A stretch of DNA of 64,000 nucleotides from Acidobacteriota bacterium (GCA_020199995.1 JAIVJM010000016.1:10932-74931); one strand, 5' to 3'; counted from the stretch's first letter, positions 6,162-63,500 are shown. A program made the numbers and translations. Notes: generated from the sequence alone by a model not told the origin.

Positions 6162-7142
6162 TCAATCCCCGTAGCCTTGAGGATGCGACTGCATCCACTC
6201 CCAAGCCGATTCGACGATGGCGCGGAGGTCTTGAAACTGTGGAGACCAGCCGAGTTCGCGGCGGATTTTTTCTGAGCTGGCGACAAGGACGGCGGGATCG
6301 CCGGGGCGGCGCGGGGCCGTGCGCGCAGTGATGTCCCGGCCCGTCACGGCGCGGGCCACTTCGATGACTTCTTTGACGGTGTAGCCTTCGCCGCCGCAGC
6401 CGAGATTGTAGACGGCGCTGCGCTCTTCGAGGACAAAGAGGGCGAGGATGTGCGCGCGCGCGAGGTCTACGACGTGGATGTAGTCGCGGACGCATGAGCC
6501 GTCGCGCGTCGGGTAGTCGTCGCCGTAGACTTCGACGTGGGCGCGGCGGCCCGCCGCCGCTTGCAGGACGATGGGGATAAGGTGCGTTTCGGGTTCGTGC
6601 ACCTCGCCGCACGCGGGGGTCGCGCCCGCCGCGTTGAAGTAGCGGAGCGAGGCGGAGCGGATACCGTAGGCTTTCTCGTACCACTGGAGCGCGTGCTCGA
6701 AGGCGAGCTTCGTCTGGCCGTAGGGGTTGGTCGGGACGGTGGGGTCGGATTCTTCGACGGGCTGCTTCTCAGGCTCGCCGTAGGCGGCGGCGGTCGAGGA
6801 GAAGACAAGGCGGCGCACTCCCGTCTCGTTCATCGCGTCGAGCAGGGAGAGCCCGGCGAGCACGTTGTTGCGATAATACTTCGACGGGTTCTCGACCGAC
6901 TCGCCGACGAGCGAGGCCGCGGCCATGTGAATGACGGCCTCCGTCCGCTGCTCCTCAAAAGCGCGTCGCAGGCGCACACCGTCCAAAAGGTCTGCCTCGA
7001 CTAGGCCCGCGCCCCGCGCGACCGCCCCGCGATGGCCTTTGGAGAGATCGTCGTAGACTACGACCTCGTGGCCGTCCTGCAACAGCTCTTCCGTGACGAC
7101 GCTGCCGATGTAGCCGGCCCCGCCCGTGACCAGAACGCGCAT
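6162..7142 (-). CDS. galE: UDP-glucose 4-epimerase
   Basis: MRVLVTGGAGYIGS Rossmann start and YxxxK context (PTNPYGQTKLAFE). An AGGGAG Shine-Dalgarno lies 5 nt upstream of ATG 7142. The track start at 7154 is a GTG inside that SD. Confidence 0.9.
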   Translation of the reverse strand: MRVLVTGGAGYIGSVVTEELLQDGHEVVVYDDLSKGHRGAVARGAGLVEADLLDGVRLRRAFEEQRTEAVIHMAAASLVGESVENPSKYYRNNVLAGLSLLDAMNETGVRRLVFSSTAAAYGEPEKQPVEESDPTVPTNPYGQTKLAFEHALQWYEKAYGIRSASLRYFNAAGATPACGEVHEPETHLIPIVLQAAAGRRAHVEVYGDDYPTRDGSCVRDYIHVVDLARAHILALFVLEERSAVYNLGCGGEGYTVKEVIEVARAVTGRDITARTAPRRPGDPAVLVASSEKIRRELGWSPQFQDLRAIVESAWEWMQSHPQGYGD

Positions 7143-7215
7143 AGTCTCCCTCACAAAATGTCTCGATTTAAAATCTGCCTGATGCTAGCACGCGCCGCCA
7201 TTTCGTGACGACGTA

Positions 7216-9828: not shown

Positions 9829-11654
<1,826 letters not shown>

Positions 11655-47724: not shown

Positions 47725-48630
47725 ATGCGCGCGCCACATAAACTCTTAAGTTGTCTCTTCGCCTGCGGCCTCCTCGCCGGGCTCGCCGCCGGGCAGGCCG
47801 GGCGGCGGCCCGACGCCGCGAGCACGATGCGCGAGCGCTTCGTCTCGCTCAATCTCTACGCCTCGCGCGCCGACGGCTCCGACACCCCCGTCACCGCCAA
47901 AGACGTTGCGCTCTACGACGCCGGGATGGAACAGGCCATCCAGAGCTTCACGCCCGACCCCAGCCCCGCACACATCGTGCTCCTCGTGGACAACTCGCTC
48001 GGACTGCGGGCCGACGTCGAGAAGCTGCAACAGGCGACGCGCGAGTTCGCCTACGAAATCTATGAGGGCGATCAGGTGATGGTCATCGGCTACGACCAGA
48101 ACGCCGAGATCATCTCGGACTGGACGGACGACGCGAAGAAGATTGAGCAGGCGCTGCCGACCTTCCGCAAGCGTGGCGAGCCGCATCTCTTCGACGCGCT
48201 CGCCGCTGTCTTGAACGACGCGCTCGTGCCCTTCTCGGCGCGCACGCGCAAGCGCGCCGTCGTGCTCGTCGCCGACGGCCTCGACCGCGGGAGCAAGTCC
48301 CACTTCGACGACATCCTCCGCACGCTTCAGGCGCAGGACATCACCGTCTACGCGCTGCAAATCCCCGACCGCACGGGCGGGGCTCTCAGGCGCGACCGGC
48401 TCAAGCCCGCGCAGGTCATCCAGAAACTCGTCGAAGGCACGGGCGGGCGCGTCCTCTCCGTCAATGAGCCGCGCGAGGCCGCCAAGTCAGTCTGCGACGA
48501 ACTGCGCCGTCACCGCTACGTGCTCTCATACACGCCCGCCTCAGTCCCCTTCTTCGGCACACGACGCCTCCTCGTCCTCCCGAACGAAGGCGTCAACGTG
48601 CGCCACAAGCTGGCGCATCCGGGGCAGTGA
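47725..48630 (+). CDS. Secreted VWA-domain protein (third paralog)
   Basis: Signal peptide. A MIDAS-like LLVDNSLGL. The same overall order as 31711 and 32998, and a C-terminal YVLSYTP motif. Confidence 0.75.
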   Translation: MRAPHKLLSCLFACGLLAGLAAGQAGRRPDAASTMRERFVSLNLYASRADGSDTPVTAKDVALYDAGMEQAIQSFTPDPSPAHIVLLVDNSLGLRADVEKLQQATREFAYEIYEGDQVMVIGYDQNAEIISDWTDDAKKIEQALPTFRKRGEPHLFDALAAVLNDALVPFSARTRKRAVVLVADGLDRGSKSHFDDILRTLQAQDITVYALQIPDRTGGALRRDRLKPAQVIQKLVEGTGGRVLSVNEPREAAKSVCDELRRHRYVLSYTPASVPFFGTRRLLVLPNEGVNVRHKLAHPGQ

Positions 48631-48824
48631 AAGCTGCCGCCTGAAGCTGCCGCCTTCCAAAACACAGAAGGGATGTGCGGCGCGTACGAGTCGTAGATAA
48701 AAGAGCCTGTAACTGAGCCGTTGCAGTTTGTCGCGTCGCGCGAGCTACACGGTGGGAGGGGCGCGGAAGGTTATAAACCGGGATGGCGCCGAGCACGGAG
48801 CGGAACTTTTTGACTGCGTTTCCC

Positions 48825-50111
48825 TTATCGCTGAGGACTGACTTTTCCCGCCTCAGACAGATAGCTCTCCAGTGCCGGCATCAAGAGGTGCGCGAACACT
48901 TCGTGCCCCTTCGGGTTGAGATGTCCGTCCAGCTCGAAAAACATTGAAGCTTCGTCAGCCCGCACGCGGAAGGCTTCGGTGACGTCGAAAACGCGCACCC
49001 CCGAACTCGCGCCGGCCGCGCCGATGGCCTCACTCGCCGCGTTCGATGTAACCATTTCCGGGACTAAGGAGAGGCCGAGGCGGCGACTGCTTTCAAGGTC
49101 TCGACGGCTGGCGTAAACCTTGTAGGGTATCGAGACCACTACCACTTCGGCCCGGTTTCCAGCCGCGACCTCCTTGATGTTCATGAGCGCCTGACTCATC
49201 GCCGAAATCATCGCCCGCACCGCCGGACGGCTCGTCTCCAACATCTCTATGAAGTAGTCCGGGCGCTTCAACGTGCCCTGCAACAGGCTCGGGTTGAGTT
49301 CGCCACGCTGGAAACGCTCTCTGACTTCACGGTCGAGCCGGTCAAAGCGCGTTCTTTCTTCCGTCGTTAGAGCCTGCAATATGCTCTCCGCCTGACTCTT
49401 CCATTCGGTGTTTACGAGCTGGCGGCTGAGAGCGCGCTTCCGCAGCAGAAAGAGAAGGTTCGGGTAGAGCCGGCTCATGACAGCGCCCGCCAAAGGGGAT
49501 GCGTCATCCCGCACGAAACTTTTCGCGGCCTCATGGCCCCCAGTCCTCGCGGGCGATGTTAACGATCCCTCTTCTCTCTTCAACTGCGCGAGGTCGTCGC
49601 CCTGCGTGATGCCCACGATCACGATATCAGGTTTCAGTAAAGGGATTGCCCTGACCGCGGTTTGCGCGTCCGCGACTGGAGAAGCGCCCGGCTGCCCCAG
49701 ATTGGCGACCTCGATGTCGTATCCGCGCTCGCGCAGACTCGCTTCGAGCACCTTCGGCCATGACTGCTCGGCGCTCACGCCCCACCCGTAGGTGAAAGAG
49801 TCGCCGATTACCAGGACCCTCGTCCCGGCCTCTTTGGTGAGTGTGAATTCGCGGTCGCGGAACCCGAGACGGTTGATGTGCGCCGTGAAAGAGAACTCCG
49901 GCGTTTGGTAAGTGAGCGTCGAACCGGGCGGGAAGATCAATCCGGCGGCTTCGACCGGCTTCTCGATAAATGAGCCGACCAGACGGTCGGCTAAAACTGT
50001 CAGCAGCAACGTGCCGAGGATGAAAAGCACAGGGACGATAATTTTTATCCCCGCGCTACGTCCGAGGCGGGTTCGGCGGTCGAGATGTCCGTGTGCTTCA
50101 GAGTTCGACAC
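48825..50111 (-). CDS. Membrane-anchored SGNH/GDSL-family hydrolase
   Basis: N-terminal TM helix, block I VLVIGDSFTYGWGV and block V ELDGHLNPKGHEVFA. Confidence 0.7.
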   Translation of the reverse strand: MSNSEAHGHLDRRTRLGRSAGIKIIVPVLFILGTLLLTVLADRLVGSFIEKPVEAAGLIFPPGSTLTYQTPEFSFTAHINRLGFRDREFTLTKEAGTRVLVIGDSFTYGWGVSAEQSWPKVLEASLRERGYDIEVANLGQPGASPVADAQTAVRAIPLLKPDIVIVGITQGDDLAQLKREEGSLTSPARTGGHEAAKSFVRDDASPLAGAVMSRLYPNLLFLLRKRALSRQLVNTEWKSQAESILQALTTEERTRFDRLDREVRERFQRGELNPSLLQGTLKRPDYFIEMLETSRPAVRAMISAMSQALMNIKEVAAGNRAEVVVVSIPYKVYASRRDLESSRRLGLSLVPEMVTSNAASEAIGAAGASSGVRVFDVTEAFRVRADEASMFFELDGHLNPKGHEVFAHLLMPALESYLSEAGKVSPQR

Positions 50112-50153
50112 TTGAGATATTTTGTTGAATTCCAGGACGGCCCATAACAGACC

Positions 50154-51797
50154 TTACCCGGTGCGCCCGGCGAGGTTGGCGACGACGGCGACCAACTCGC
50201 TCGGGCTAATCGGCTTCGGCACATGTATCTGGAAGCCTGATTGAAGCACCCGGATGCGAGCTTCTTCGCCCGCGTAAGCTGTCAGTGCCGCCGCCGCCGG
50301 AATCTTACCCCCGCGCTCCTTCCCAAGAGCGCGCACTTTAGCAATCAGGGAGTAGCCATCTTCATCCGGCATCCCGATGTCGCTGATAAGCACGTCGAAC
50401 GCTTCTTCCGCTACCGCTTCCAGCGCGGCGGCTGCCGAACTTGCCGTTTTCACCCGCGCCCCGCAGCCTTCGAGTATGAATTGCAGCAACTCACACGTGT
50501 CCGCTTCGTCGTCAACGACAAGCACACGGAGACCATCAAGCTCCGGCGGGCACTCGAACTCCGGCGGCTTAAACTCCGGCCTCTCCGGCGCGCTCCCGGT
50601 GTCGCTTGTCGCACTGCGCACCGCCATCAACGGCAGACTGACAGTGAAGGTCGAGCCAAGACCTTCACCCTTGCTGTCAACCCGCACCATCCCGCCATGC
50701 AATTCGACCAGTTGACGGACAATCGCTAAACCTAAGCCTAACCCGCCGAATGCTCGCGTGGTCGTCGCATCGGCTTGCCGGAAGCGGTCGAAGACGTGCG
50801 GCAGGAACTCCGGCGCGATGCCAAGACCTGTATCGCTGACTGTCATTTCGACATGTGATTCGACGCGCTCCAGTCGAATCAGCACGCGCCCGGCCTTAGG
50901 CGTAAACTTGATGGCATTCGAGATGAGATTCCACGCTACCTGTTGCAGCCGGTCAGGGTCGCCGGAGACTTGCCCCGCCGGAGAATCAAGTTGCAACTGC
51001 AAACGTATCTCTTTGGCCTCCGCCGCCGGGCGCAGGCCGTCAACCGCCGCGATGATGATGGCTCCGAGGTCAACGGGTTGCACGCTCATGCGCAGCTTGC
51101 CGGTGATGATGCGCGCGACATCGAGCAGATCGTCAACCATCTGCACTTGCATCTGCGCATTACGCCGGATGACTTCGGCGGCGCGTAAGGAAGTTACGGG
51201 GTCGAGCCTAGGGTCTCTTAACATCTCCGCCCACCCGACAATCGCAGTCAGTGGGGTGCGGAGTTCGTGCGAGAGCGTGGCGAGAAATTCATCTTTGAGA
51301 TGGTTCGCTCTCTCCGCGGTTTCCGTGAGCTCATGTTGCCGGGTTGCGGAGAGCAGGAGCTGTTCGTTCATCTCCACCGCTTGTCTTCGGAAGGACGCTA
51401 TCTCCGTCACATCGGTCACCTGAATGATGACCCCCACCGGGTGTTCGTCCGACCCGAGGATGGCCCACACCGAATAAGACCAGTAAACGGGTGGCGTTGT
51501 ATGGCTGTGCTCCTGCTCGACTAAAATCTCCGGCGTTCCCGTGCGATACACACGGTCTAAAAGCGGGAGACATCCATTTTCATCCCCTTCCGGCACGGCC
51601 TCGGCGAAGGGGCGTCCGATCAGTTCCTCTCGCTCCCTCCCGACAAGGCGCGCGAACGCGGCATTGAGGTGGCGCGCGATGTGCGTTGTTCCCTCGACGG
51701 CAACCATCGGCTGCGGTGAAAGTTCGGAAAAGTATCGGCACAGACGCACAATGTCGAAAGCCTGCGCCCCCGTGACTGACCATGGTTTCTCACGCAT
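50154..51797 (-). CDS. Hybrid sensor histidine kinase / response regulator (PAS-HisKA-HATPase-REC)
   Basis: H-box FLATLSHELRTPL, G-boxes (GLGIAPE, GGLGLGLAIV), and a REC domain (VLVVDDEAD...DVLISDIGMPDEDG...PKP). An AGGAG SD lies 9 nt after the kaiC stop. Confidence 0.9.
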   Translation of the reverse strand: MREKPWSVTGAQAFDIVRLCRYFSELSPQPMVAVEGTTHIARHLNAAFARLVGREREELIGRPFAEAVPEGDENGCLPLLDRVYRTGTPEILVEQEHSHTTPPVYWSYSVWAILGSDEHPVGVIIQVTDVTEIASFRRQAVEMNEQLLLSATRQHELTETAERANHLKDEFLATLSHELRTPLTAIVGWAEMLRDPRLDPVTSLRAAEVIRRNAQMQVQMVDDLLDVARIITGKLRMSVQPVDLGAIIIAAVDGLRPAAEAKEIRLQLQLDSPAGQVSGDPDRLQQVAWNLISNAIKFTPKAGRVLIRLERVESHVEMTVSDTGLGIAPEFLPHVFDRFRQADATTTRAFGGLGLGLAIVRQLVELHGGMVRVDSKGEGLGSTFTVSLPLMAVRSATSDTGSAPERPEFKPPEFECPPELDGLRVLVVDDEADTCELLQFILEGCGARVKTASSAAAALEAVAEEAFDVLISDIGMPDEDGYSLIAKVRALGKERGGKIPAAAALTAYAGEEARIRVLQSGFQIHVPKPISPSELVAVVANLAGRTG

Positions 51798-51806
51798 ATC
51801 GCACTC

Positions 51807-53324
51807 CTACTCATTACTTTCCGGTTCGTCCATTGACTCATGGATTTCTCCCGGTTCACCATTCCATGGGCCGGGAACTCCGGTGGTCAGACCGCGATAG
51901 CCCTCCAATCGCTCGCCGATGACAAGACCCTCGGAAGTGATTTCGAATTCGCGCATGTCTACGCTGTGTGCGCTGCGACGCATCTTGATGATGACCATCA
52001 TCTTGCGGAGTTGGCCGTTGATGGAGACGTACCGCAGGCGGAGGATGTCGTCACTCAGGAACGAGATCGCGTATGAGCTGAGGGTGAACTCGGTAAAAGT
52101 CTCCTGAACTTCAACGGTGCTGAGGATCGTCACGCCCGTCCTCGTGAGTGCGCCGATCATCCGGTACAGCGATTCCCGGAAGTCGGTGCGGAAGCCGGGA
52201 GCCAGCGCCATCTCGAACCCGGCCAGCGAATCTATCACCAGCCGCTTAGCGCCCAACGCCTCCACCGCATCTATGATTTCACGCACCGTCTCATCCACGG
52301 ACAGGTCGAGGGGGCGGATGTAGAGGAGTTTGAGTGTGCCCTCCTTCTGCGGCGTGTCCAGGTCAAGGCCAAAGCTGGCGGCACGGTCCGCGTACTCCTT
52401 GGGCCGCTCCTCGAACATCGCCACGATCCCCGGCTCCCCCTGACGGATGCCCTCGACGATGAACTTGGTACCCAGCAGCGACTTCCCCGTCCCCGATGAA
52501 CCCGCCACCAGCAAGCTGTCCCCTTCGGGAATGCCCCCGCCCATCATCTCGTCCAGTTCGGGGATACCGCTCGAAAGTCGACGATGCCCCTTGGGTTTCT
52601 CTTCACTGTCGTTGAGACCGAGGGTGCGCGGGAAGGTTTGCAGCCCCGCATCGGTGATGCGGAAGGTGTGCAGCCCCGGCACCGAGGCTTGCCCGCGCGA
52701 CTTCCTGATCTGCAACTTCCGCACGATGGAGTTCCGCTCTATCTGCTGCGAGAGCCAGAAGAATCCGTCGGCGACGGTGAAGACGGGGTTATCACGAATC
52801 TCGCCCTCGTCGTATTCTCCGATGAGAAACGTGGTCGCCTGCCAGCTCGTCAGATTAACGGCTAGCCGCTGGATGAAACCCTGAAGTTCCACGTCACTTC
52901 CGCCGGACTGTGCCTTCCGCACCACGGTGCGAAAAGAGTCCACCACGACGATGCCGGGACTGACCGCCTCGACCTCTTTGACAATCTCCTCCAGCACCGC
53001 GTTCAGGTCTTGATCGAGCACGACCTGACTGAGGTTGATGAAGCGGACCGAGGTGTTCAACTTGGTCTGGTCGAAAAATTGAAACTGCTGCTGATACCGC
53101 AGCATCTTGATGGCCGGTTCGCCCAGCACGGTGAAATACAGCGCGGGGCGCTCCGGCTTGGCATTGGCGAACATGATTTGATGAGCCAACGTCGTCTTCC
53201 CGCCACCGGGCGCGCCCGCGATGATGTTAAAAGAAAACTCCGGCAAGCCGCCGCCCAGAATCTCATCCAGACCCGGCACGCCGGTCGGCAGTGTCCGAAT
53301 CTCCACCTTGTCTTGCACGCTCAT
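51807..53324 (-). CDS. kaiC: KaiC-like double RecA-domain ATPase
   Basis: There are two Walker A motifs (GAPGGGKT and GSSGTGKS). GVPGLDEILGGGLP and GIPELDEMMGGGIP open each half. 505 aa. Confidence 0.9.
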   Translation of the reverse strand: MSVQDKVEIRTLPTGVPGLDEILGGGLPEFSFNIIAGAPGGGKTTLAHQIMFANAKPERPALYFTVLGEPAIKMLRYQQQFQFFDQTKLNTSVRFINLSQVVLDQDLNAVLEEIVKEVEAVSPGIVVVDSFRTVVRKAQSGGSDVELQGFIQRLAVNLTSWQATTFLIGEYDEGEIRDNPVFTVADGFFWLSQQIERNSIVRKLQIRKSRGQASVPGLHTFRITDAGLQTFPRTLGLNDSEEKPKGHRRLSSGIPELDEMMGGGIPEGDSLLVAGSSGTGKSLLGTKFIVEGIRQGEPGIVAMFEERPKEYADRAASFGLDLDTPQKEGTLKLLYIRPLDLSVDETVREIIDAVEALGAKRLVIDSLAGFEMALAPGFRTDFRESLYRMIGALTRTGVTILSTVEVQETFTEFTLSSYAISFLSDDILRLRYVSINGQLRKMMVIIKMRRSAHSVDMREFEITSEGLVIGERLEGYRGLTTGVPGPWNGEPGEIHESMDEPESNE

Positions 53325-53806
53325 GGTTTTTCCTCACCTCTCAAATGCGCTCCGTCCGTGGACGCCTCCGGCCATGTGTCAAGCACCAGGCGCAGAGTCA
53401 AAGCTTCGCCGATGAAGGTCGTCAGCAGTTCCAGCAGGTAGGCCACAAGAACCGCTCCGGCCTCTCCCGCCGCCGCCGCCCCCTCCCCCTCGCTCCCCTC
53501 GATTCCATCGAATCCCTCCACAGAGCCGTCCGCGCGTACCTGCACCATATTCAGCGAGGGAACTTCCGCCTTCGCCAGTGTCAGAGCGCGGGATAAAAGA
53601 GAGCGAAAGCCGTCAACTCCCGCGAGCCTGATGAGGTACAAACGTAACTCTCCAATGACCAGCGCCGCGACACCTACGCGTGCATCTGACGAGTTGGCGC
53701 GCGCCGCCTCAAACACGAGTAAGCGCCGGGCCAGTTCTTGATTTTGTGGTGAAGCCGTACTCATCGGGTGCGCCTCTGACGCCTCATTGTAACTGCTCTC
53801 AGACAT
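53321..53806 (-). CDS. Hypothetical protein translationally coupled to kaiC
   Basis: It makes an ATGA overlap with the kaiC start. 161 aa, or 147 aa from ATG 53764 with an AGAGG SD. I recognise no family. Confidence 0.55.
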   Translation of the reverse strand: MSESSYNEASEAHPMSTASPQNQELARRLLVFEAARANSSDARVGVAALVIGELRLYLIRLAGVDGFRSLLSRALTLAKAEVPSLNMVQVRADGSVEGFDGIEGSEGEGAAAAGEAGAVLVAYLLELLTTFIGEALTLRLVLDTWPEASTDGAHLRGEEKP

Positions 53807-53823
53807 GGGCTTTATTGGTGCTC

Positions 53824-54948
53824 TTACTCTACTCCTGCTTTGTCAGGAATAGTGAATCGAAACGTCGAGCCTTGACCGAGTTCACTTTCGACCGCAACCT
53901 CTCCGCCGTGGGCTTCAGCGAACTGCTTGACGATGGCGAGGCCGAGTCCCATCCCGCTTTTTTTGTCCGGGTCGGTTTCTAATTTATCGAACACTTTTTC
54001 CAGCCGGTCTGCTGGAATCCCTGCGCCGTTGTCGCTCACCCAGCATTCGATGAAAGCGGATTCTTTGATTATCTTCGCACCGACAATAACTTCTCCGTTC
54101 GGGGTGTAGTCAATGGCGTTAGAGATCAAGTTCTGAAAGATAAGGGTCAACATGTTGGCATCGGCGAACGCTGTCAACTCTTCGGGCACTTCGTTGGTCA
54201 AACACAGGTTCGAAGCTGCGGCCAGTGGACTGAGGTCGCTGACGAGCACTTCAACCAGCGCCCTCAGTTTTACTTCCTGCCGCTCCACCTTTTCGTTCAC
54301 CTGCGCCTTCAGATTCGCTTCTTCCCGCACTACTTTGACGACCAATGAATTTAAGCGGCTGACATTACGATGCATGGTTTCCAGTAACATGCTAGCCCGC
54401 TCGTCCTTCACTACGTCAGGGACTGTCGCTTCGAGAAGCTTGGCCGCCATCGCGATAGCTGAAAGTGGAGACCTCAGATCGTGGGCGACGAAGGTTAAAT
54501 GCTCCTCACGCCGTTGCTGTATCTCGAGAGCCTTTTGCGCGGCATACGTCTTCACCGCCAGACCGATTGAGACGTCAATAACGCGGTTGATGGTTCGGTT
54601 GACCACCCCACGAAGTCTCAAGTCATGCCTTTCGATAAGGTCCTGAATGACGCCGCGCAGGGCGTTGTATTCCGCCACCACCTCCTCGACATCGAATCCG
54701 AGGCGGAGCCGATCCAGCCCATGAGTAATAGGATTTTCTTTTAGTCCTTCGATCATCGACTCGTCGGAACACAGTTCAAGCTCACAGGCTAATTCCTCGA
54801 GCAAATCGGGGATGTGATCGTTAAGAGTCGGCACGTCGAGGTTATGCGCCACAGAAAGCTGTTGCACCTCGCGCCGCCATTCGGCGAGTAAGGTATCGCG
54901 CTCTCGTCTAATCAGCGCCGCCAGTGCGTCGAGATTTTCAGCCGACAT
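53824..54948 (-). CDS. Sensor histidine kinase with a helical RsbRD-N/globin-coupled-like N-terminal domain
   Basis: H-box FVAHDLRSPLSAI and an HATPase domain (SNAIDYTP, DNGAGIP, GMGLGLAIV). The N-terminal 150 aa resemble the RsbR-type non-haem globin sensor domain; this is from memory. Confidence 0.8.
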   Translation of the reverse strand: MSAENLDALAALIRRERDTLLAEWRREVQQLSVAHNLDVPTLNDHIPDLLEELACELELCSDESMIEGLKENPITHGLDRLRLGFDVEEVVAEYNALRGVIQDLIERHDLRLRGVVNRTINRVIDVSIGLAVKTYAAQKALEIQQRREEHLTFVAHDLRSPLSAIAMAAKLLEATVPDVVKDERASMLLETMHRNVSRLNSLVVKVVREEANLKAQVNEKVERQEVKLRALVEVLVSDLSPLAAASNLCLTNEVPEELTAFADANMLTLIFQNLISNAIDYTPNGEVIVGAKIIKESAFIECWVSDNGAGIPADRLEKVFDKLETDPDKKSGMGLGLAIVKQFAEAHGGEVAVESELGQGSTFRFTIPDKAGVE

Positions 54949-55035
54949 TTTTCTACTCCGTGAAGCGCCGGGTTGGATCGGGACAGCGCAGATATCATGT
55001 TTCGTTCAGAGATTCAACTATCTGCCGTCCTTCAC

Positions 55036-57447
55036 TCAACCTGATCGCTCTCGTTGAATGAGGCTCGCCATGACGGTCACCAGCTCGGCCAGCTCGACCG
55101 GCTTAGAGATATGCATCTGAAAGCCCGCCCTCAGCGCCCGCAGGCGGTCTTCGGTTCTCGCATACGCCGTCAGGGCGATGGCCGGTATTTTCCCTCCGCG
55201 GGCGGCAGGCAGCGCCCTTACTTTCCTGATCAACGCGTAACCGTCCTCGACCGGCATCCCGATGTCGCTGATTAAGAGATCGGGCCGCTCCGCTTCGATA
55301 GCTTCGAGCGCCTCTTGAGCGGAGCTGGTAGTCAAGACTTCCGCACCGCATTGGCCGATCCCGACCCTGAGTAACTCCCTCGTATCAGCCTCATCGTCAA
55401 CCACGAGCACCTTCAGCCCGTCTAATCTTTCGGGACAGGTGTATGAGAGGAGCGGGTCTCTGGCCGCCGGGTGGACGCGCTCCGCAAGTTTATCCTTTTG
55501 ATAGACCGGAACTACGGGGAGCTTCACGACGAAAGTTGCCCCCTGTCCTTCGCCCTGACTGTCAGCCTCGACCGTGCCGCCGTGCAGCTCTACCAGATGG
55601 CGGACGATTGCCAGCCCCAGTCCGAGCCCGCCGTGCTGGCGAGTCGTCTTCTGGTCGGCCTGACGGAATCGCTCGAAGACGTGCGGCAGAAACTCCGGTT
55701 TGATCCCGGCCCCCGTGTCGCTGACCGTGATCTCGATGTGCGAGTTGATGCGCTCGAGCCTGATTTGCACCCTCCCGTCTTTGGGGGTGAACTTGATGGC
55801 GTTCGACAGTAAATTCCAGACGACCTGTTGAAGACGCGCCGGGTCGCCCGCGACGGAAATCACGCCCGTGTCCATCACCTTCTGAATCCGCACGTTTTTA
55901 GCTTCGGCTGCCGGTCGCAGTGCCTCGATGGCCGATTCGATGAACGAGCCGGGCTCAACCTGCCTGACATCGAGGCGCAACTTGCCTGTAATGATCCTCG
56001 ACACGTCGAGCAGGTCGTCAATGAGCTGCGACTGCGCGCGCGCGTTACGTTCGATGGTCTCAAGCGCGCTGGTCGTACTTGTTCCATCGATTTGTCCGGA
56101 GCGCAGCAGGTGCGCCCAGCCGAGGATGGCCGTGAGCGGCGTCCGCAATTCGTGCGAGACGGTGGCGAGGAACTCGTCCTTCAGGCGGTTCGCTTCCCGC
56201 AGCTCTTCAGCCGTGCGGCGCTGCTCGTCAACGTCCGTGTTCGTGCCGAACCAGCGCACAATTTGGCCCTGAGAACCGCGGAGCGGATTGACGCGCGTCA
56301 GGAACCAGCGGAACACGCCGTCAGCACCCTTGAGCGGGAACTCCATCTCGAACGGCTCGCCGGTCTCGATTGATGCTTTCCATCTCTCGACCACTCGCGG
56401 CAGCATCTCCGCGTCGTGGACGGACTGCCAGCCCCACCCTTCCATCTGCTCGGGCGTCGTCCCCGTGTAGTCGTACCACCTCTGGTTATACCAGAAGATG
56501 TAACCCTCGGCATCGGCCATCCACACCAGCTGCGGCACGGCGTCGGCGAGCGTGCGGAGCTGCCCCTCGCTCTCCCGCAACGCTTCTTCAGCACGTTTGC
56601 GCTCGGTGATATCGAGCGACAGGTAGAGCACTGCCCCTGCCCTGCCGTTTCGCCCCGGCAGCGCAGTCCACGTGACTAGTAATTGCCGCCGTCCATTCGG
56701 GAGATCGACTTCAATCTCATCAGTTTCGCTGAGGCCGGTCGTGTACACGCGGCCCAGAATGGAAGCCACTACTTTGTCGGCTTCGGGCACGACTTCGGCG
56801 TGGGAGCGCCCCAGGAACTGCTCTTCAGAAAGACCCGTAAGTTCACACGTCTGCCGATTAACTAATACGAAACGGTGGTCCGGGCCCTCCATTATGCCGA
56901 TGGCGAGCGGGGCGTGCTCCAGCACGAGTTGGGTTAAGTTCCGCTGCCGCTCGGCCTCGGCCCGGGCCGACTGTTCGCGTGAAAGCAGCTCCTCAAGCTG
57001 ACTTCTGGAATTATGCAGCTCTTCTTCAGCCCGCTTACGCTCCGTGATGTCGCGCGTGAAGCAGCGCGTGTGGACAAACTTGTCCTCCTCCCACATCACG
57101 TTCGAGTTGATGAGCACGTGCCGGACCGATCCGTCCTTACATCTCAGTTGCGCCTCGTGGTCGTGGAGCGTCTCATTGTTCGTCAGCCGGCGCAGGATGT
57201 CGTTGATGACACCGCTGTCGGCGTGAAACTCGGTGATGCTGCGCCCGATATACTCTTCCCGTGTGTAGCCGAGCATGTCCAGCTCGGCCTGATTAGCCCA
57301 CAGGATCGTCCCGTCGGCCCCGACCCAGTGCAGGCAGACTGAGGCATTTTCGATAAAGTCGGCCAGCTCATGCTCGCGCCGGCGCAGCTCTTCGAGAGTA
57401 TTTCTCTCCTCAAGAGAGCGTTCAGGAATTACATCGTCAATAGCCAT
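55036..57447 (-). CDS. Hybrid sensor histidine kinase / response regulator with three PAS domains
   Basis: There are three PAS blocks, each ending in DITERK or TNTDVDE. H-box FLATVSHELRTPL, an HATPase domain, and REC (VLVVDDEADT...DLLISDIGMPVEDG...SKP). The start is ATG 57447, or TTG 57477 as in the track. Confidence 0.9.
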   Translation of the reverse strand: MAIDDVIPERSLEERNTLEELRRREHELADFIENASVCLHWVGADGTILWANQAELDMLGYTREEYIGRSITEFHADSGVINDILRRLTNNETLHDHEAQLRCKDGSVRHVLINSNVMWEEDKFVHTRCFTRDITERKRAEEELHNSRSQLEELLSREQSARAEAERQRNLTQLVLEHAPLAIGIMEGPDHRFVLVNRQTCELTGLSEEQFLGRSHAEVVPEADKVVASILGRVYTTGLSETDEIEVDLPNGRRQLLVTWTALPGRNGRAGAVLYLSLDITERKRAEEALRESEGQLRTLADAVPQLVWMADAEGYIFWYNQRWYDYTGTTPEQMEGWGWQSVHDAEMLPRVVERWKASIETGEPFEMEFPLKGADGVFRWFLTRVNPLRGSQGQIVRWFGTNTDVDEQRRTAEELREANRLKDEFLATVSHELRTPLTAILGWAHLLRSGQIDGTSTTSALETIERNARAQSQLIDDLLDVSRIITGKLRLDVRQVEPGSFIESAIEALRPAAEAKNVRIQKVMDTGVISVAGDPARLQQVVWNLLSNAIKFTPKDGRVQIRLERINSHIEITVSDTGAGIKPEFLPHVFERFRQADQKTTRQHGGLGLGLAIVRHLVELHGGTVEADSQGEGQGATFVVKLPVVPVYQKDKLAERVHPAARDPLLSYTCPERLDGLKVLVVDDEADTRELLRVGIGQCGAEVLTTSSAQEALEAIEAERPDLLISDIGMPVEDGYALIRKVRALPAARGGKIPAIALTAYARTEDRLRALRAGFQMHISKPVELAELVTVMASLIQRERSG

Positions 57448-57632
57448 CAGGATTATTTGACCCTTGGTGCAAAACAAGAGAAGCGCAGTGGGGGTTCTCT
57501 AACCGGACTTCTCATTAAACGGGGGAAATTCATTATACGAGGTAATACAAAGATGTACATCTCTACTATAGAGGATGTGAATGTTCCGGGGTGTGCTGTA
57601 GGCGCAGCTCCCAACGGTACTTTTCATTTCGG

Positions 57633-57815
57633 TCACTGCTTTCGCGAGTAGACGTAGAACATGACGCAGATGACGAGGACGAGGAGTGCTTCGAGCTGGA
57701 TGAAGTATTGGCGGTCGAAGCGGCCCGCGTCGTCGAAGGCGAGCGGGTAGAGAAAGAAGCTGCCGAAGGCGAGGCCGGCGGCGAGCCAGATGATTTGGCG
57801 CTTCCTGTCCCACAT
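57633..57815 (-). CDS. Possible small two-helix membrane protein
   Basis: MWDRKRQIIWLAAGLAFGSFFLYPLAFDDAGRFDRQYFIQLEALLVLVICVMFYVYSRKQ. The only support is the ORF and its hydrophobicity. Confidence 0.35.
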   Translation of the reverse strand: MWDRKRQIIWLAAGLAFGSFFLYPLAFDDAGRFDRQYFIQLEALLVLVICVMFYVYSRKQ

Positions 57816-57821
57816 CTTTTT

Positions 57822-57928
57822 TAAGAAGTCAGGAGTCCCGAGTCTGGAGCATGAAGTTAAGAAGTTCAGAGTCGAAGAGACTCTCTTTTTCCTGCTCCAG
57901 ACTTCAGACTCCAAGCTCCGGACTATCC
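57822..57928. repeat. Heptad-periodic hairpin (GTCWGGA family)
   Basis: aagaagtcaggagtcccgagtctggagca pairs with tgctccagacttcagactccaagctccggactatcc. The right arm contains the aminotransferase TAG stop. Confidence 0.8.
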
Positions 57929-59119
57929 TTTACGGAGTTTTTGCAGGCGCTCGGCGGCGGCTTCGAGCGTCTCGTCTTTTTTGCAGAAGCAGAAGCGCAC
58001 CTGTCGCGCGCCAAGTTCGGGGCGGCTGTAGAAGCTTGAGCCGGGGACGCAGGCGACGCCGACTTCGCGGACGAGATGGCGCGTAAACTCCACGTCGTCG
58101 GCGAAGCCGAACGCCGAGATATCGGTCATCACGTAGTACGCGCCGTCGGGGCGGAAGACTTTGAAGCCCGCCGCTTCGAGGACGGGCAGGAGCATGTCGC
58201 GGCGTCGCCGGTAATCGTTTTGCAGGTGCTCGTAATAAACGGGCGGCAGCCGCAGGGCATAGGCCCCGGCGCGCTGCAAGGGGGCGGCGGCCCCGACGGT
58301 GAGGAAGTCGTGAACCTTGCGGACGGCGTTCGTGATGTCGGGCGGCGCTATCACATAGCCGACCCTCCAGCCCGTCACCGAGTAGGTCTTCGACATCGAG
58401 TTGACGACCACCGTGCGCTCGCGCATCCCCGGAAGCTGCGCCATCGAGATGTGCTCGACCGCGCGGTCTTCGCGCGGGTAGGTGATGTGCTCGTAGATTT
58501 CGTCGGTGAAGCAAAGCGCGTCGAACTCCCGGCAGAGCGCGGCGACGAACTCCAGTTCCTCGCGCGTGAAAACTTTTCCGGTCGGGTTGTTCGGGTTGCA
58601 GATGATGACGGCCCGGGTGCGCTCGTTGAAGGCGGCGCGCAGCTCATCGGGGTCGAACGCCCAGTCGGGCGCGCGAAGTGGCACATAGCGCGGGCGCGCG
58701 TCGGAGAGGATTACGTCGGGCGCGTAGTTCTCGTAGAAGGGCTCGAAGATGACGACCTCTTCGCCGGGGTCTACGGTCGCCATCATCGCGGCGATCATCC
58801 CCTCGGTCGAGCCGCAGGTGACGGTCAGTTCGGTCTCCGGGTCACAGTCTATGCCGAGATACCACTTCGTCTTCTCGGCAATCGCCTCGCGGAAATCCTT
58901 TGCGCCCCACGTGATCGCGTACTGGTTAACGTCCTCTTCGATGGCCCGCATGGCGGCGAGCTTCAAGTCCTCCGGCGCGGGGAAATCCGGAAACCCCTGC
59001 GAGAGGTTGACGGCCCCATAGCGCATCGCCTCGCGCGTCATCTCGCGGATGACGGACTCGGTGAAGCGGCCCGCCTTGTGCGACACGCGGCGTCGAGTTG
59101 AGGCAGATGGTGTGCTCAT
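57923..59119 (-). CDS. Class I/II PLP-dependent aminotransferase
   Basis: NPNNPTG and SMSKTYSVTGWRVGY (PLP lysine) motifs; 398 aa. Confidence 0.9.
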   Translation of the reverse strand: MSTPSASTRRRVSHKAGRFTESVIREMTREAMRYGAVNLSQGFPDFPAPEDLKLAAMRAIEEDVNQYAITWGAKDFREAIAEKTKWYLGIDCDPETELTVTCGSTEGMIAAMMATVDPGEEVVIFEPFYENYAPDVILSDARPRYVPLRAPDWAFDPDELRAAFNERTRAVIICNPNNPTGKVFTREELEFVAALCREFDALCFTDEIYEHITYPREDRAVEHISMAQLPGMRERTVVVNSMSKTYSVTGWRVGYVIAPPDITNAVRKVHDFLTVGAAAPLQRAGAYALRLPPVYYEHLQNDYRRRRDMLLPVLEAAGFKVFRPDGAYYVMTDISAFGFADDVEFTRHLVREVGVACVPGSSFYSRPELGARQVRFCFCKKDETLEAAAERLQKLRKG

Positions 59120-60126: not shown

Positions 60127-61158
60127 TCACTCGGGCGGCGGCTGCTCCTGCTCGGCGGCCTGTCGCTGGAGCTGTTCGATGATGGAGCGGATGGCGCTGG
60201 CGTGGCTGCCTTCGGGCGCGAGTTCGAGATACTTCTCGTAGGCGGCGGCGGCGTCCTTCCACTTCTCCAGCTTCTCGTAATTTCTGCCGAGCAGTTCGTA
60301 GAGCACGGGCTCGGTGTCGGAGAGCTGCGCGACGGCCTTGCGGAAAGCGCCGACCGCCTCTTGGTGCTCGCCTTTGTCTTCGAAGACGATTCCCAAACCC
60401 GTGTAGGCTTCGGGCTGGAAGCCGCGCGCCTCGCGGATGGCGCGGCGGTAGGCCTCGATGGCGGCTTCGGGGTCGCCCAAACCCCGCAGAACTCGCCCCT
60501 CGACCGCCGAAGCCTCGGCGTAGGCGGGGCGCGCGCGCCGCGCCGCGGCGATCTCCGCGAGCGCGCCGTCGTGGTCGTCCGTCGCCATCAGCGCGCGCGC
60601 CAACCCGACGCGCGCGGCGGCAAAGCGCGGGCGCAATTTTAAGGCTTGACGGTAAAGCTCGGCGGCGGTTTGCGCGCCACCGGCCTTCTCGCGCGCTTCT
60701 TCGGCCTGCTGAAAGAGCAGCTCGGCCTCGTCCGTCGCCGCCACGAGGCGGACTTCGACCGTGCCGCGCCGCGCTGGCAGGAGCGCGACAATGCGCTCCT
60801 GAAAACCGCGCGCACGCACGCGCAGGGCGTGACGCCCCGCCGAGACGTTCGCGAGCCTCAGTTCCCCTTCGGCATCCGCCGCTCCGCGCCGCACTTCGTC
60901 CACCCAAACGATTGCGCCCGGCTGTGTCTTGACGTTGATCGAGCGGGCCTTGGCCGCGACGGCGGCGGCGGGCTTCTTCGGGGCGGGCGCACTCGAAGAG
61001 GTGGTCGCTTTCTTCGGGGCGGCAGCCGCCGCGGCGGCCTTTGCTTTTCTCTGCGCGTGTGCGGGCGTCGCCCACGGCGTCAACACGCAGAGCGACAACG
61101 CCGGCGCGAGCGCCAGCGCGCTAACTCTCGTCCCCCTCTGACCCGGAGTCTTGCTCAT
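60127..61158 (-). CDS. Secreted PEGA-like beta-sandwich plus TPR repeat protein
   Basis: ATG 61158 makes an ATGA overlap with the upstream gene. There is a signal peptide, an Ala/Lys/Pro linker, the block INVKTQPGAIVWVDEV...HALRVRARGF, then TPR-like repeats. Confidence 0.7.
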   Translation of the reverse strand: MSKTPGQRGTRVSALALAPALSLCVLTPWATPAHAQRKAKAAAAAAAPKKATTSSSAPAPKKPAAAVAAKARSINVKTQPGAIVWVDEVRRGAADAEGELRLANVSAGRHALRVRARGFQERIVALLPARRGTVEVRLVAATDEAELLFQQAEEAREKAGGAQTAAELYRQALKLRPRFAAARVGLARALMATDDHDGALAEIAAARRARPAYAEASAVEGRVLRGLGDPEAAIEAYRRAIREARGFQPEAYTGLGIVFEDKGEHQEAVGAFRKAVAQLSDTEPVLYELLGRNYEKLEKWKDAAAAYEKYLELAPEGSHASAIRSIIEQLQRQAAEQEQPPPE

Positions 61159-63500
61159 TCTTCCTCGTTGCTCGAAACGCGTCGGGGCCGCGCTTTGTTG
61201 TTGGCGGGCGACGCGGCGGGAGTCGCCGATTCGATGGGGCGGCGCACGGCGCGCGCTCCGACTTCGGGGCGAAAGCGCCCCTGCTCGTCGTAGAGGCGGC
61301 GGTATTGCAGCAGGTTGCGGACGACGCCCTGCACGTAGCCGCGCGTCTCTTTGAAGGGGATGGCCTCGGCCCACTCGTCAATCTGGAGCGGCAGGCTGGT
61401 GCGCCACGCCGCGGCCCTTCCGGGACCGGCGTTGTAGGCGGCGGCGACGTACTCGATGCGCCCGAACTTGTCGAGCTGATCTTTGAAGTAGGACGTGCCG
61501 AGCCGGATGTTGAGGCGGGGCTGGAAGAGCGACTCGACGCTGATGGCTTCGCCGACGCCGTATCGTTTCGCCGTCAGCCGCGCAGTGGGGACGAGCAGTT
61601 GCATGAGCCCGTAGGCGTCGGCGTGCGAGGCGGCGCGCGGGTTGAAGACCGACTCCTGCCGGATGAGCCCGGCGACGGTGTAGGGGTCGAGACTTTTGGC
61701 GCGCGCTTCCTGCACGATGATGTCCCAGTAGGCGAGCGGGTAGAAGACGTCCCACTCTTCGGGCGTCATCTCCTCGACCTCCATCTGCGAGTAGTCGGGG
61801 AAGCTCCGGCGCAGCACGTTGAAGGCCTGCACGTTGTCGTTGCGCGCGCGGTAGAGCTTCGCCTTCGAGAGATTGAGACTCGGACTCGCGGGCGCGGCTT
61901 CGAGCGCCCGGTCGAGTTCGGCGTGTGCCTCGCCGTCCATCCCGACGGCGGCCAGTTCTTCGGCGCGCTTGACTCGCGCGGCCTCGCGCGGCCCGGCGGT
62001 CTCTTCCGCCTCGGCGACGGGCTTCAAGTTAGCGACGGCGCGCGCGACCATAGAGTCGGGCGCAAAGTTTGTCGCGGGGATGCGCGCGCCCGCCTGCTTC
62101 AAAGCGTCGAGGCGCTGCCGCGAGAGATAGCCGTACCAGTTGGCGTCGTAGCGTTCGAGCATACCCTCGTAGAGGGCACGCGCCTCGGCCAGACGACCCG
62201 CGCGCTCCGTGTCGCGCGCGGCCCAGTAGCCCGCGCGGCCCCGGTTGTCGGTGTTGCGGTCGGCGTAATTCGCCAGATGCTCGATGAGGAGGCGCGAAGA
62301 TTCGTCGAACCTCTTGGCCTCGTGCGCGGCCCACGCGATCTCGAACTGCGCGCCCGCGACTTCCGATTCGCCCGGAAAAGTCTCGACGGCAAGGCGGTAA
62401 AAGCTCATCGCCTCGAAATTATTCTTCGCGTCCTTCGCCGTCTGCCCGGCGGCGACGACGGCGCGCTTCGTCCAGTCGCTTACGGGAAAGGCGCGGCGCA
62501 GCTCTGCGAGCGTCGAGCGGGCCGCGTCCCACTGCCGCGCGCGCGCGTAGTGCTGCGCGAGATAGTGGAGCGCCTCGGCGCGCACGTCGCCCGCCGAAGC
62601 GGGGACGGCGGTGAGCGAGGCAATCGTCTCGGGCGCGCGGCGTGCGTGGTAGGCGGCTACCCCTCGGCGCAGGCGGGCCCGCGGCGTGGCCGTCGCGGGG
62701 AAGCGAGCGAAGGCGTCTTCGTAGGCGAAGACGGCGTCGCCGTAGCGCTTCGACAAAAAGAGCCTTTCGGCGCGCGCTGCGGCCTCTTCAGCGGAGGCGG
62801 GCGCGACGCTGGACGAAAGTCGCGCGAAGGCGGCGGCGGCCTCGGCGTCGGCGGAGTCCGACGGCGTCGCGTAAAAATAGAGGCGGCGGTAGGCGGCGAG
62901 AGCGCGCAGAGGGTCGCCCGTCTGCTCGTAAGCCTTCGCTGTCAGCAGGATCGCTTCGTCGTTGTCGGTGTCGGCGAGTTTCTTCAAGGCCAGAGGGATT
63001 CCGGCAGACTGTCCGTCCTGCGCGAGTAGTTGCGCGGCGCGCAGCGTGGCCTCGCGCGCGCGCAGTGAGTCCGCGTCGTCGCGCGCGAGTTCTTCGAGCG
63101 CGGCGCGCGCCTCGGCCCTGCGTCCCGTCTTCTCTAACGCGTCGGCCCTCAGCCAGAGCGCGTAATCGCCAATCGCCGTCTGTCTTTTGATGTCGCCGGA
63201 AGAGAGCAGCGAGGCCGCGCCCGCGAAGTTGTTGGCCGCGGCGCGGATGCGCGACTGGAGGACGAGGGCCAGCGCGCCCGTGCGCGTGCCCGCGTAATCG
63301 GAGGCGAGTTGCGCGACCGCGGCTTCGGCGGGCAGCGTGCCGCCGCGCGTGAGCAGTCGCAGGCGCTCGAAGGCGGCGGGCTCGTCTCTGGTCTGCGTGC
63401 GGCAGCTCGCGACGGCGAACGGCAGCGTCGCCGCCCCCAGAAGCGCCGCGCAGAGGGTGACGACAAAAGTGAAGCGGTGGCTGTTGAAATGATTCTTCAA
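61155..63500 (-). CDS. Soluble lytic murein transglycosylase (Slt70-like: superhelical repeats plus SLT domain)
   Basis: Signal peptide, about 550 aa of TPR-like helical repeats, and a C-terminal catalytic region IRQESVFNPRAASHADAYGLMQL...AAYNAGPGR. Confidence 0.85.
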   Translation of the reverse strand: MKNHFNSHRFTFVVTLCAALLGAATLPFAVASCRTQTRDEPAAFERLRLLTRGGTLPAEAAVAQLASDYAGTRTGALALVLQSRIRAAANNFAGAASLLSSGDIKRQTAIGDYALWLRADALEKTGRRAEARAALEELARDDADSLRAREATLRAAQLLAQDGQSAGIPLALKKLADTDNDEAILLTAKAYEQTGDPLRALAAYRRLYFYATPSDSADAEAAAAFARLSSSVAPASAEEAAARAERLFLSKRYGDAVFAYEDAFARFPATATPRARLRRGVAAYHARRAPETIASLTAVPASAGDVRAEALHYLAQHYARARQWDAARSTLAELRRAFPVSDWTKRAVVAAGQTAKDAKNNFEAMSFYRLAVETFPGESEVAGAQFEIAWAAHEAKRFDESSRLLIEHLANYADRNTDNRGRAGYWAARDTERAGRLAEARALYEGMLERYDANWYGYLSRQRLDALKQAGARIPATNFAPDSMVARAVANLKPVAEAEETAGPREAARVKRAEELAAVGMDGEAHAELDRALEAAPASPSLNLSKAKLYRARNDNVQAFNVLRRSFPDYSQMEVEEMTPEEWDVFYPLAYWDIIVQEARAKSLDPYTVAGLIRQESVFNPRAASHADAYGLMQLLVPTARLTAKRYGVGEAISVESLFQPRLNIRLGTSYFKDQLDKFGRIEYVAAAYNAGPGRAAAWRTSLPLQIDEWAEAIPFKETRGYVQGVVRNLLQYRRLYDEQGRFRPEVGARAVRRPIESATPAASPANNKARPRRVSSNEEE

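Follow-up and report, generated by a model that had tools for sequence, protein, structure and literature searches.

KaiC homologues far outnumber true circadian clocks. One such homologue is encoded in a 64,000-nucleotide (nt) stretch of DNA from an Acidobacteriota bacterium (GCA_020199995.1, JAIVJM010000016.1:10932-74931), hereafter the window, within a cluster of five genes on one strand (Table 1). The KaiC-like gene is preceded by a gene for an unannotated protein, termed UNK, and followed by a gene for a hybrid histidine kinase, termed HK3; the genes for two further kinases, HK1 and HK2, lie upstream of UNK. The question raised by this locus is how a KaiC-like ATPase could serve in signalling where neither KaiA nor KaiB is evident. 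We read the locus as a cytoplasmic signalling module independent of KaiA and KaiB, in which UNK and the KaiC-like ATPase would form the core, UNK would set the state of the ATPase, and the PAS domain of HK3 would read it; we give this reading a probability of about 60%. KaiC-kinase modules lacking KaiB and the idea of KaiC-like ATPases as hubs are already known. The novelty is UNK, which was treated as a side issue in the first-pass annotation of the window; no other part of the module is as conserved or as little understood.

UNK and its pairing with a KaiC-like ATPase

Loci related to the window were collected by a genome scan with an alignment of 14 closer UNK sequences (80 loci), and the others were taken from exact look-ups and plasmids. 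In all 73 loci where 300 nt or more of DNA came after UNK, the next gene was a KaiC-like gene of the same clade. In 57 of the 59 full pairs, which came from three phyla, the two genes overlapped, by 4 nt in 37 pairs and by 17 nt in 20. The pair was found in Acidobacteriota, Planctomycetota, Verrucomicrobiota, Alphaproteobacteria, and Betaproteobacteria. The UNK profile gave no match beside KaiC-like genes of 32% identity or less at the four sampled (Agrobacterium C58 pAt, Phenylobacterium, Sinorhizobium, and Sphingobium). UNK and the KaiC-like ATPase are thus the invariant core of these loci, in which UNK stands upstream as an obligate partner of this KaiC-like clade. Furthermore, the order UNK-KaiC-kinase was repeated in dozens of independent genomes and is therefore more than chance.

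Two Terriglobales loci (L049 and L074, 2436-6598) also have another double-domain KaiC, which is closer to the canonical type and has 25-31% identity to that of the window. A PocR-PAS-GAF-HisKA_3 kinase follows it, and its position is approximately 4 kb upstream of UNK-UNK-KaiC; no UNK was found beside it with the UNK profile.

UNK had no match in Pfam, NCBIfam, PADLOC, or the PDB sequences, either as a single sequence or as a profile of 67 sequences. A word-indexed search returned 2067 proteins of the family at E ≤ 1e-3, and an exhaustive search against clusters at 50% identity returned 2104 clusters at the same threshold and 962 at E ≤ 1e-10. The source name of the homologues was "hypothetical protein" in every case seen. 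The family is present in at least six phyla; beyond the lineages in which the pair was found, UNK proteins occur in Candidatus Methylomirabilis (Methylomirabilota) and Oligoflexus tunisiensis. The latter, Paracoccus liaowanqingii, and Caballeronia sp. SBC1 and SBC2 are cultured carriers, which make experimental tests practical.

The AlphaFold2 model of UNK, built on a diverse alignment, was all-helical with one small hairpin (predicted local distance difference test score 86.4, predicted template modelling score 0.78). A Foldseek search of this model against the PDB gave no match (best E 3, template modelling (TM) score approximately 0.2). Residues R55, G63, G66, R73, L127, G133, and W145 of UNK are invariant. 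A relationship between UNK and the RsbRD_N domain of HK2 was rejected, as the hhalign probability was 0.07%. We found no published account of the UNK family, of its strict tie to one KaiC clade, or of its fusion to a receiver domain, and when the literature was searched for a KaiC partner with a name, only irrelevant papers came back.

Absence of KaiA and KaiB and motifs of the ATPase

KaiA and KaiB were searched for with phmmer (--max, filters off) in the six frames of the 64-kb window and of 83 related loci. The KaiB query was that of S. elongatus, verified as 100% identical to 4kso_C, and the KaiA query was taken from 5n8y_M. No homologue of either protein was found in the window or beside the related loci, where all matches were at the level of noise (E > 0.8 in the window). 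The first-pass annotation had described the cluster as lacking both proteins and had named a KaiB identity of UNK or of a nearby open reading frame (ORF) as a finding that would speak against it; the search bore out the former. The latter was ruled out by the all-helical model, the null results in PDB and Pfam, and the KaiB phmmer search: neither sequence, profile, nor fold gave a match. Likewise, UNK was rejected as a KaiA homologue: the hhalign probability was 0.7%, no KaiA entry appeared in the Foldseek search against the PDB, the KaiA phmmer search gave noise, and none of 67 UNK family members had a Pfam KaiA match. By the sequence and model tests applied, UNK is thus classed as neither KaiB nor KaiA.

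The cluster kinases have PAS or RsbRD_N domains at their N-termini (from residue 9 to 42 onward), and therefore none carries the KaiB-like N-terminal domain of SasA. In four Terriglobia loci (L050, L055, L056, and L073, approximately 9965-10425), the KaiC-like gene is followed at once by a conserved ORF that encodes about 150 amino acids (aa) and has no Pfam match. It matched KaiA weakly and recurrently (E 0.65-2.3); these matches were treated as noise in view of the Pfam null, and the ORF was not accepted as KaiA.

The KaiC-like protein matched solved structures of KaiC (E 1e-62 to 1e-45), and KaiC was by far its best family match, alongside weak matches to DnaB, RadA, and RecA models. Its scores were under both NCBIfam cutoffs for circadian KaiC (NF006799, 243.9 bits vs 408; TIGR02655, 161.8 bits vs 546), and its identity to the KaiC of T. 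elongatus was 28.7%. Among 285 KaiC-like proteins of plasmids, identity to the window protein was 69% in Paracoccus, 52-53% in three Caballeronia copies, and at most 32% in the rest. Because of this clean gap, the sequences place the KaiC-like protein in a discrete clade, with at least 50% identity inside and at most 32% to other KaiC-like proteins. The median identity within the family was 81% for the N-terminal half (CI) and 69% for the C-terminal half (CII).

Motifs were compared in an alignment of the window protein, 59 orthologues (60 sequences in total), and the KaiC of T. elongatus. HMMER paired the canonical CI best with the CII of the window protein, and the N-terminal half of the window protein is therefore the divergent one. 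CI retains Walker A (GAPGGGKT), Walker B (VVDS), and the arginine finger (KxRG), of which the Lys, Asp, and Arg are invariant in the 60 orthologues. The catalytic Glu pair of CI (E77-E78 in S. elongatus) is replaced by Leu67-Gly68, followed by a single Glu69, and LGEP is found at this site in 60 of 60 sequences. CII retains Walker A (GSSGTGKS), Glu305-Glu306, Walker B (IDSL), and the arginine finger (KMR), none of which varies in the family. In the alignment, the part of CI with the KaiB-binding loop is shorter by 7 residues, and the C-terminus is not conserved.

The phosphosite region of CII, to which the first-pass annotation had drawn attention, was also examined. Ser421-Phe422 takes the place of the Ser431-Thr432 pair in all 60 orthologues, and the position of Thr426 is an invariant Ser416. 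The suggestion in the same annotation that the system could be non-circadian agrees with the sequence, in which Phe stands for Thr432, the Glu pair of CI is lost, and the KaiB-loop segment is shortened.

Gene layout and the variable third component

The ORF list and Pfam agreed exactly with the five minus-strand genes and domains that had been described before (Table 1). The ATGA overlap between UNK and the KaiC-like gene was confirmed from the sequence, with GAGG upstream of it. The reported 9-nt distance from the KaiC stop to the ATG of HK3 was also read in the sequence, where AGGAG straddles the stop. The gaps between HK1 and HK2 and between HK2 and UNK are 87 nt and 17 nt, respectively. 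For HK1, ATG 57447 is a likelier start than TTG 57477, and the start of UNK may be either 53806 (161 aa) or ATG 53764 (147 aa); many UNK homologues have 143-146 aa. The promoter-like match before HK1 was the sole one in positions 48500-58200, but about 2 are expected there by chance, and hence its support is positional only. The scan of this interval gave no convincing terminator between the five genes. Judged from the spacing and the single promoter-like site, co-transcription of all five genes is plausible. No membrane-like segment was found in any of the five proteins, all of which are acidic.

Table 1 Positions of the cluster genes and their surroundings in the window.
Feature	Position	Strand	Basis or remark
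HK1: PAS x3-HisKA-HATPase_c-REC hybrid kinase	55036-57477	-	Pfam
HK2: RsbRD_N-HisKA-HATPase_c kinase	53824-54948	-	Pfam, RsbRD_N E 9e-8
UNK: unannotated helical protein	53321-53806	-	ORF, no Pfam match
KaiC-like double-domain ATPase	51807-53324	-	Pfam, two PF06745 domains, E 1e-73
HK3: PAS_4-HisKA-HATPase_c-REC hybrid kinase	50154-51797	-	Pfam
Sigma-70-like promoter match, TGTACA-16-TATAAT, 10/12	57532-57559	-	just upstream of HK1
GAF-GAF sigma-54 activator with Fis-type helix-turn-helix	43806-45965	-	
VWA-domain protein	47725-48630	+	ordinary flanking gene
SGNH/GDSL hydrolase with AlgX-like C-terminal domain	48825-50111	-	start 42 nt past HK3
Class I/II aminotransferase	57923-59119	-	ordinary flanking gene
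TPR and SLT lytic transglycosylase	61155-63500	-	ordinary flanking gene

The hydrolase gene that follows HK3 was considered as a sixth member of the operon and set aside, as unrelated genes stand at that position in relatives.

The claim that did not hold was that the five genes form a conserved unit. The nearest relative, whose UNK is 86% identical, has UNK, the KaiC-like gene, and a PAS-HisKA-HATPase-REC kinase only. An upstream hybrid kinase like HK1 was present in only two related loci, L007 (three PAS domains) and L023 (no PAS by domain BLAST). An RsbRD_N kinase was present in four, either upstream of UNK (L007 and L023) or downstream of HK3 (L001 and L011), and was missing from the other Pyrinomonadaceae loci. 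The transmitter and receiver of HK1 are 59.6% identical to those of HK3 over 394 aa; the two kinases are paralogues whose sensor arrays differ. The G+C fraction of HK2 is 0.537 (0.616 at third codon positions) vs 0.60-0.61 in its four neighbours and 0.646 in the whole window; this deviant composition and the variable position in relatives suggest that HK2 is a later insertion. In our reading, a three-gene module probably gained HK1 and HK2 later, as input kinases specific to the lineage. Pfam found no STAS domain in HK2, in which RsbRD_N is followed by HisKA and HATPase_c, unlike in an RsbR or stressosome sensor.

The H-box His of HK3 is residue 177 and its receiver Asp is residue 473; the H-box of HK2 is at residue 156. 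The PAS domain of the kinase downstream of KaiC is 66-93% identical in Pyrinomonadaceae, Gemmatales, and Isosphaeraceae, and the 9-nt spacing between KaiC and HK3 is kept in Pyrinomonadaceae. Across phyla, the PAS domain keeps 66-76% identity where the kinase core has 40-46%, and it survives even a swap of the core (L035). Both observations point to the HK3-type PAS domain as the part that would contact the UNK-KaiC pair.

The third component varied with the lineage. In Pyrinomonadaceae, Gemmatales, and Isosphaeraceae, a PAS-HisKA-HATPase-REC kinase lies downstream of KaiC, and in the Gemmataceae locus with the swapped core (L035), the HK3-type PAS sits on a HisKA_3 core. Pedosphaera and Bryobacteraceae have a PAS kinase without a receiver, the IS-flanked Paracoccus plasmid has an HWE kinase and a single REC protein, and Caballeronia has a GGDEF-HisKA-HATPase protein. 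In about 30 Terriglobia loci, which have no adjacent kinase, two UNK paralogues in tandem are directly preceded by a Crp/Fnr-type regulator. On four independent contigs (L087-L090), REC is fused to UNK. These exchanges of the third partner fit a hub with exchangeable outputs.

Several loci showed further features of their own. The Terriglobia regulator (loci among L032-L082, approximately 6200-7200) is a cyclic-nucleotide-binding protein, and in a few loci its gene is downstream and on the other strand. On the Sphingobium plasmid pSRL1 (L096), an unrelated KaiC-like gene likewise has a Crp/Fnr gene before it. The REC-UNK and KaiC-like genes of L087-L090 stand beside PIN/MazE and PhdYeFM toxin-antitoxin pairs and an N6/N4 DNA methyltransferase, with an integrase in L089 as well, and these surroundings may be a mobile island. 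The plasmid UNK-KaiC cassettes (L086, which is Paracoccus liaowanqingii NZ_CP040765.1, 4109-7227; L092; and L097) are bracketed by the insertion sequences (IS) IS110, IS5, and IS21. The 69% identity between the KaiC-like proteins of an alphaproteobacterium and the acidobacterial window suggests horizontal spread of the cassette.

Proposed mechanism, alternatives, and known systems

From the gene and domain content, the motifs, the pairing and overlap of UNK and KaiC, the co-conservation of the PAS domain, and the absence of KaiA and KaiB, we infer the contacts, the direction of control, and the phosphorylation steps of the following scheme. UNK and the divergent KaiC-like ATPase ring would form a core complex, in which the ATPase acts as an ATP-driven switch rather than a circadian oscillator. 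The overlapping genes would allow UNK and KaiC to be made in a fixed proportion. CII would be the catalytic half, possibly modified on the invariant Ser421, and CI, the more conserved half in the family, would bind nucleotide and act as a docking surface. UNK would bind the ring and set its state, in terms of nucleotide or of phosphorylation. This state would then be read by the PAS domain at the N-terminus of HK3, and HK3 would toggle between kinase and phosphatase modes, with its phosphate passing to its own receiver and on to an Hpt protein or a response regulator. HK1, with three PAS domains, and HK2, with RsbRD_N, would be additional upstream inputs in this genome.

Several points weigh against this scheme. 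A KaiB gene may be present in this genome beyond the 64-kb window. In Terriglobia, no kinase is encoded next to the pair. The partners in Paracoccus and Caballeronia have no PAS domain; PAS docking is therefore not universal. The high cross-phylum identity of KaiC and the IS-flanked plasmid copies may reflect horizontal transfer and not constraint. The displaced Glu of CI may remain catalytic, which makes catalysis by CII alone uncertain. Finally, LbKaiC2 of Leptolyngbya boryana, described below, is probably in the same clade, a placement made by motif positions rather than by sequence comparison.

The changing effectors beside a constant UNK-KaiC pair would also be expected if UNK were an adaptor that bridges the KaiC-like ring to a nearby effector (kinase, cyclase, or Crp), or a substrate remodelled by the ATPase. 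The two UNK paralogues of Terriglobia agree with such a role, as does the REC-UNK fusion, in which UNK occupies the place where a response regulator has its output. However, the KaiC of Pseudomonas binds its kinase directly via PAS with no UNK there, and the co-conserved PAS suggests direct contact in the present module too, and we regard the adaptor or client role as unlikely. More speculatively, and in our view rather unlikely, UNK could be a non-homologous functional counterpart of KaiA: a helical, probably dimeric protein that binds the KaiC-like ring and turns on nucleotide exchange and autophosphorylation of Ser421, controlled by a fused receiver in some lineages. If so, ATPases of the LbKaiC2 type would seem inert in vitro since they were assayed without their partner, and UNK with its KaiC-like protein would make up a two-protein switch, or a primitive timer, of wide occurrence and with an evolutionary origin separate from that of KaiA and KaiB. 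A genuine timer, an hourglass or damped oscillator like the KaiBC of purple bacteria with UNK in place of KaiB, appears improbable. The invariant Ser421 and Ser416 and the intact catalytic residues of CII would suit it, and KaiC homologues outside cyanobacteria can reportedly time physiology (PMC4794148). On the other hand, the window and the 83 loci have no KaiB, the Phe found at the Thr432 position in 60 of 60 orthologues makes an ordered two-site cycle impossible, the Glu pair of CI, which is the pace-setter of the clock, is lost, and the KaiB-binding-loop segment is 7 residues shorter; moreover, the ATPase of LbKaiC2 is temperature-dependent and shows no autophosphorylation.

The remaining explanations deny the module a dedicated signalling function of this kind. 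A chance neighbourhood, in which independent two-component genes surround a RecA/RadA-type ATPase without a signalling role, would account for the two non-conserved upstream kinases and for the weak DnaB, RadA, and RecA matches, but we consider it very improbable: UNK, KaiC, and a signalling protein are syntenic in more than 70 loci of several phyla, the spacing between KaiC and HK3 is kept in Pyrinomonadaceae, and KaiC is the best family match by far. Still harder to credit is a selfish or defensive role for UNK and KaiC as a mobile cassette, for instance as an anti-phage system or as a pair of the toxin-antitoxin type. Its plasmid copies in Paracoccus and Caballeronia stand beside IS elements, and the REC-UNK loci lie among toxin-antitoxin pairs and an integrase; nonetheless, the cassette is chromosomal and syntenic in most genomes and always tied to signal-transduction proteins. 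PADLOC gave generic matches only (P-loop and HATPase), and membership in a defence system was rejected on this basis.

We therefore retain the switch-like UNK-KaiC core read by HK3 as the preferred reading. Irrespective of the mechanism, the analysis delimits a highly conserved KaiC-like clade that always travels with an unannotated protein family, and UNK is a concrete missing component for the field to test.

The locus has likenesses to several known systems. Makarova, Galperin, and Koonin reportedly proposed in 2017 that archaeal KaiC-like ATPases are hubs of signal transduction (cited in PMC11680916). As in that proposal, the KaiC-like ATPase of the present loci is tied to varied signalling partners, whereas the archaeal proteins are reportedly mostly single-domain and belong to other clades with other partners. 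With the cyanobacterial KaiABC system and its SasA and CikA kinases, the module shares a two-ring RecA-type ATPase hub, histidine kinases as presumed readers, and a small helical or accessory gene upstream of kaiC. It differs from that system in having no KaiA or KaiB, in the loss of the Glu pair of CI, in the Phe at the Thr432 position, in the shorter KaiB-loop segment, and in kinase N-termini made of PAS or RsbRD_N instead of the KaiB-like domain of SasA. KaiA and KaiA3 reportedly combine a receiver-type N-domain with a helical KaiC-binding C-domain (for KaiA3, PMC11372060). The REC-UNK fusion P0199 resembles KaiA and KaiA3 in architecture only, being a receiver followed by a helical domain directly upstream of the KaiC gene; unlike them, UNK has no homology to KaiA detectable by hhalign, Foldseek, or Pfam in the searches given above.

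The KaiC modules of Pseudomonas offer a tested parallel. There, double-domain KaiC homologues without KaiB bind adjacent kinases or hybrid kinases, the N-terminal PAS domain of the kinase alone suffices for KaiC binding in P. putida, and the function is related to stress and is not circadian (Terrettaz et al., bioRxiv 10.1101/2022.01.26.477890). The present locus has the same make-up, namely a KaiC-like gene without KaiB and a same-strand kinase or hybrid kinase with a receiver in a predicted operon. By the published description, the phosphosite in Pseudomonas is TY/SY, SS, or no phosphorylatable pair, in contrast to the invariant Ser-Phe found here, and a small upstream partner is not reported there, whereas UNK is obligatory here.

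A parallel in motif positions is LbKaiC2, which forms a multimer; assayed alone, it had a low, temperature-dependent ATPase activity, and autophosphorylation was not detected (Matsukami et al. 2024, PMC11680916). Its authors assigned it to a unique group outside C2 and C3, with approximately 26% identity to canonical KaiC, a value close to the 28.7% of the window protein (PMC11680916). Both proteins have a single Glu in CI at position 69, the Glu pair of CII (304-305 in LbKaiC2 and 305-306 here), and one phosphosite Ser (417 and 421, respectively). LbKaiC2 has no KaiA-binding C-terminal extension, and the C-terminus is unconserved in the window family; in each case a kinase gene follows the KaiC stop closely, after 3 nt in LbKaiC2 and 9 nt here. 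LbKaiC2 is the one probable member of the clade studied biochemically, and the lack of an UNK partner in the assay may explain why almost no activity was seen.

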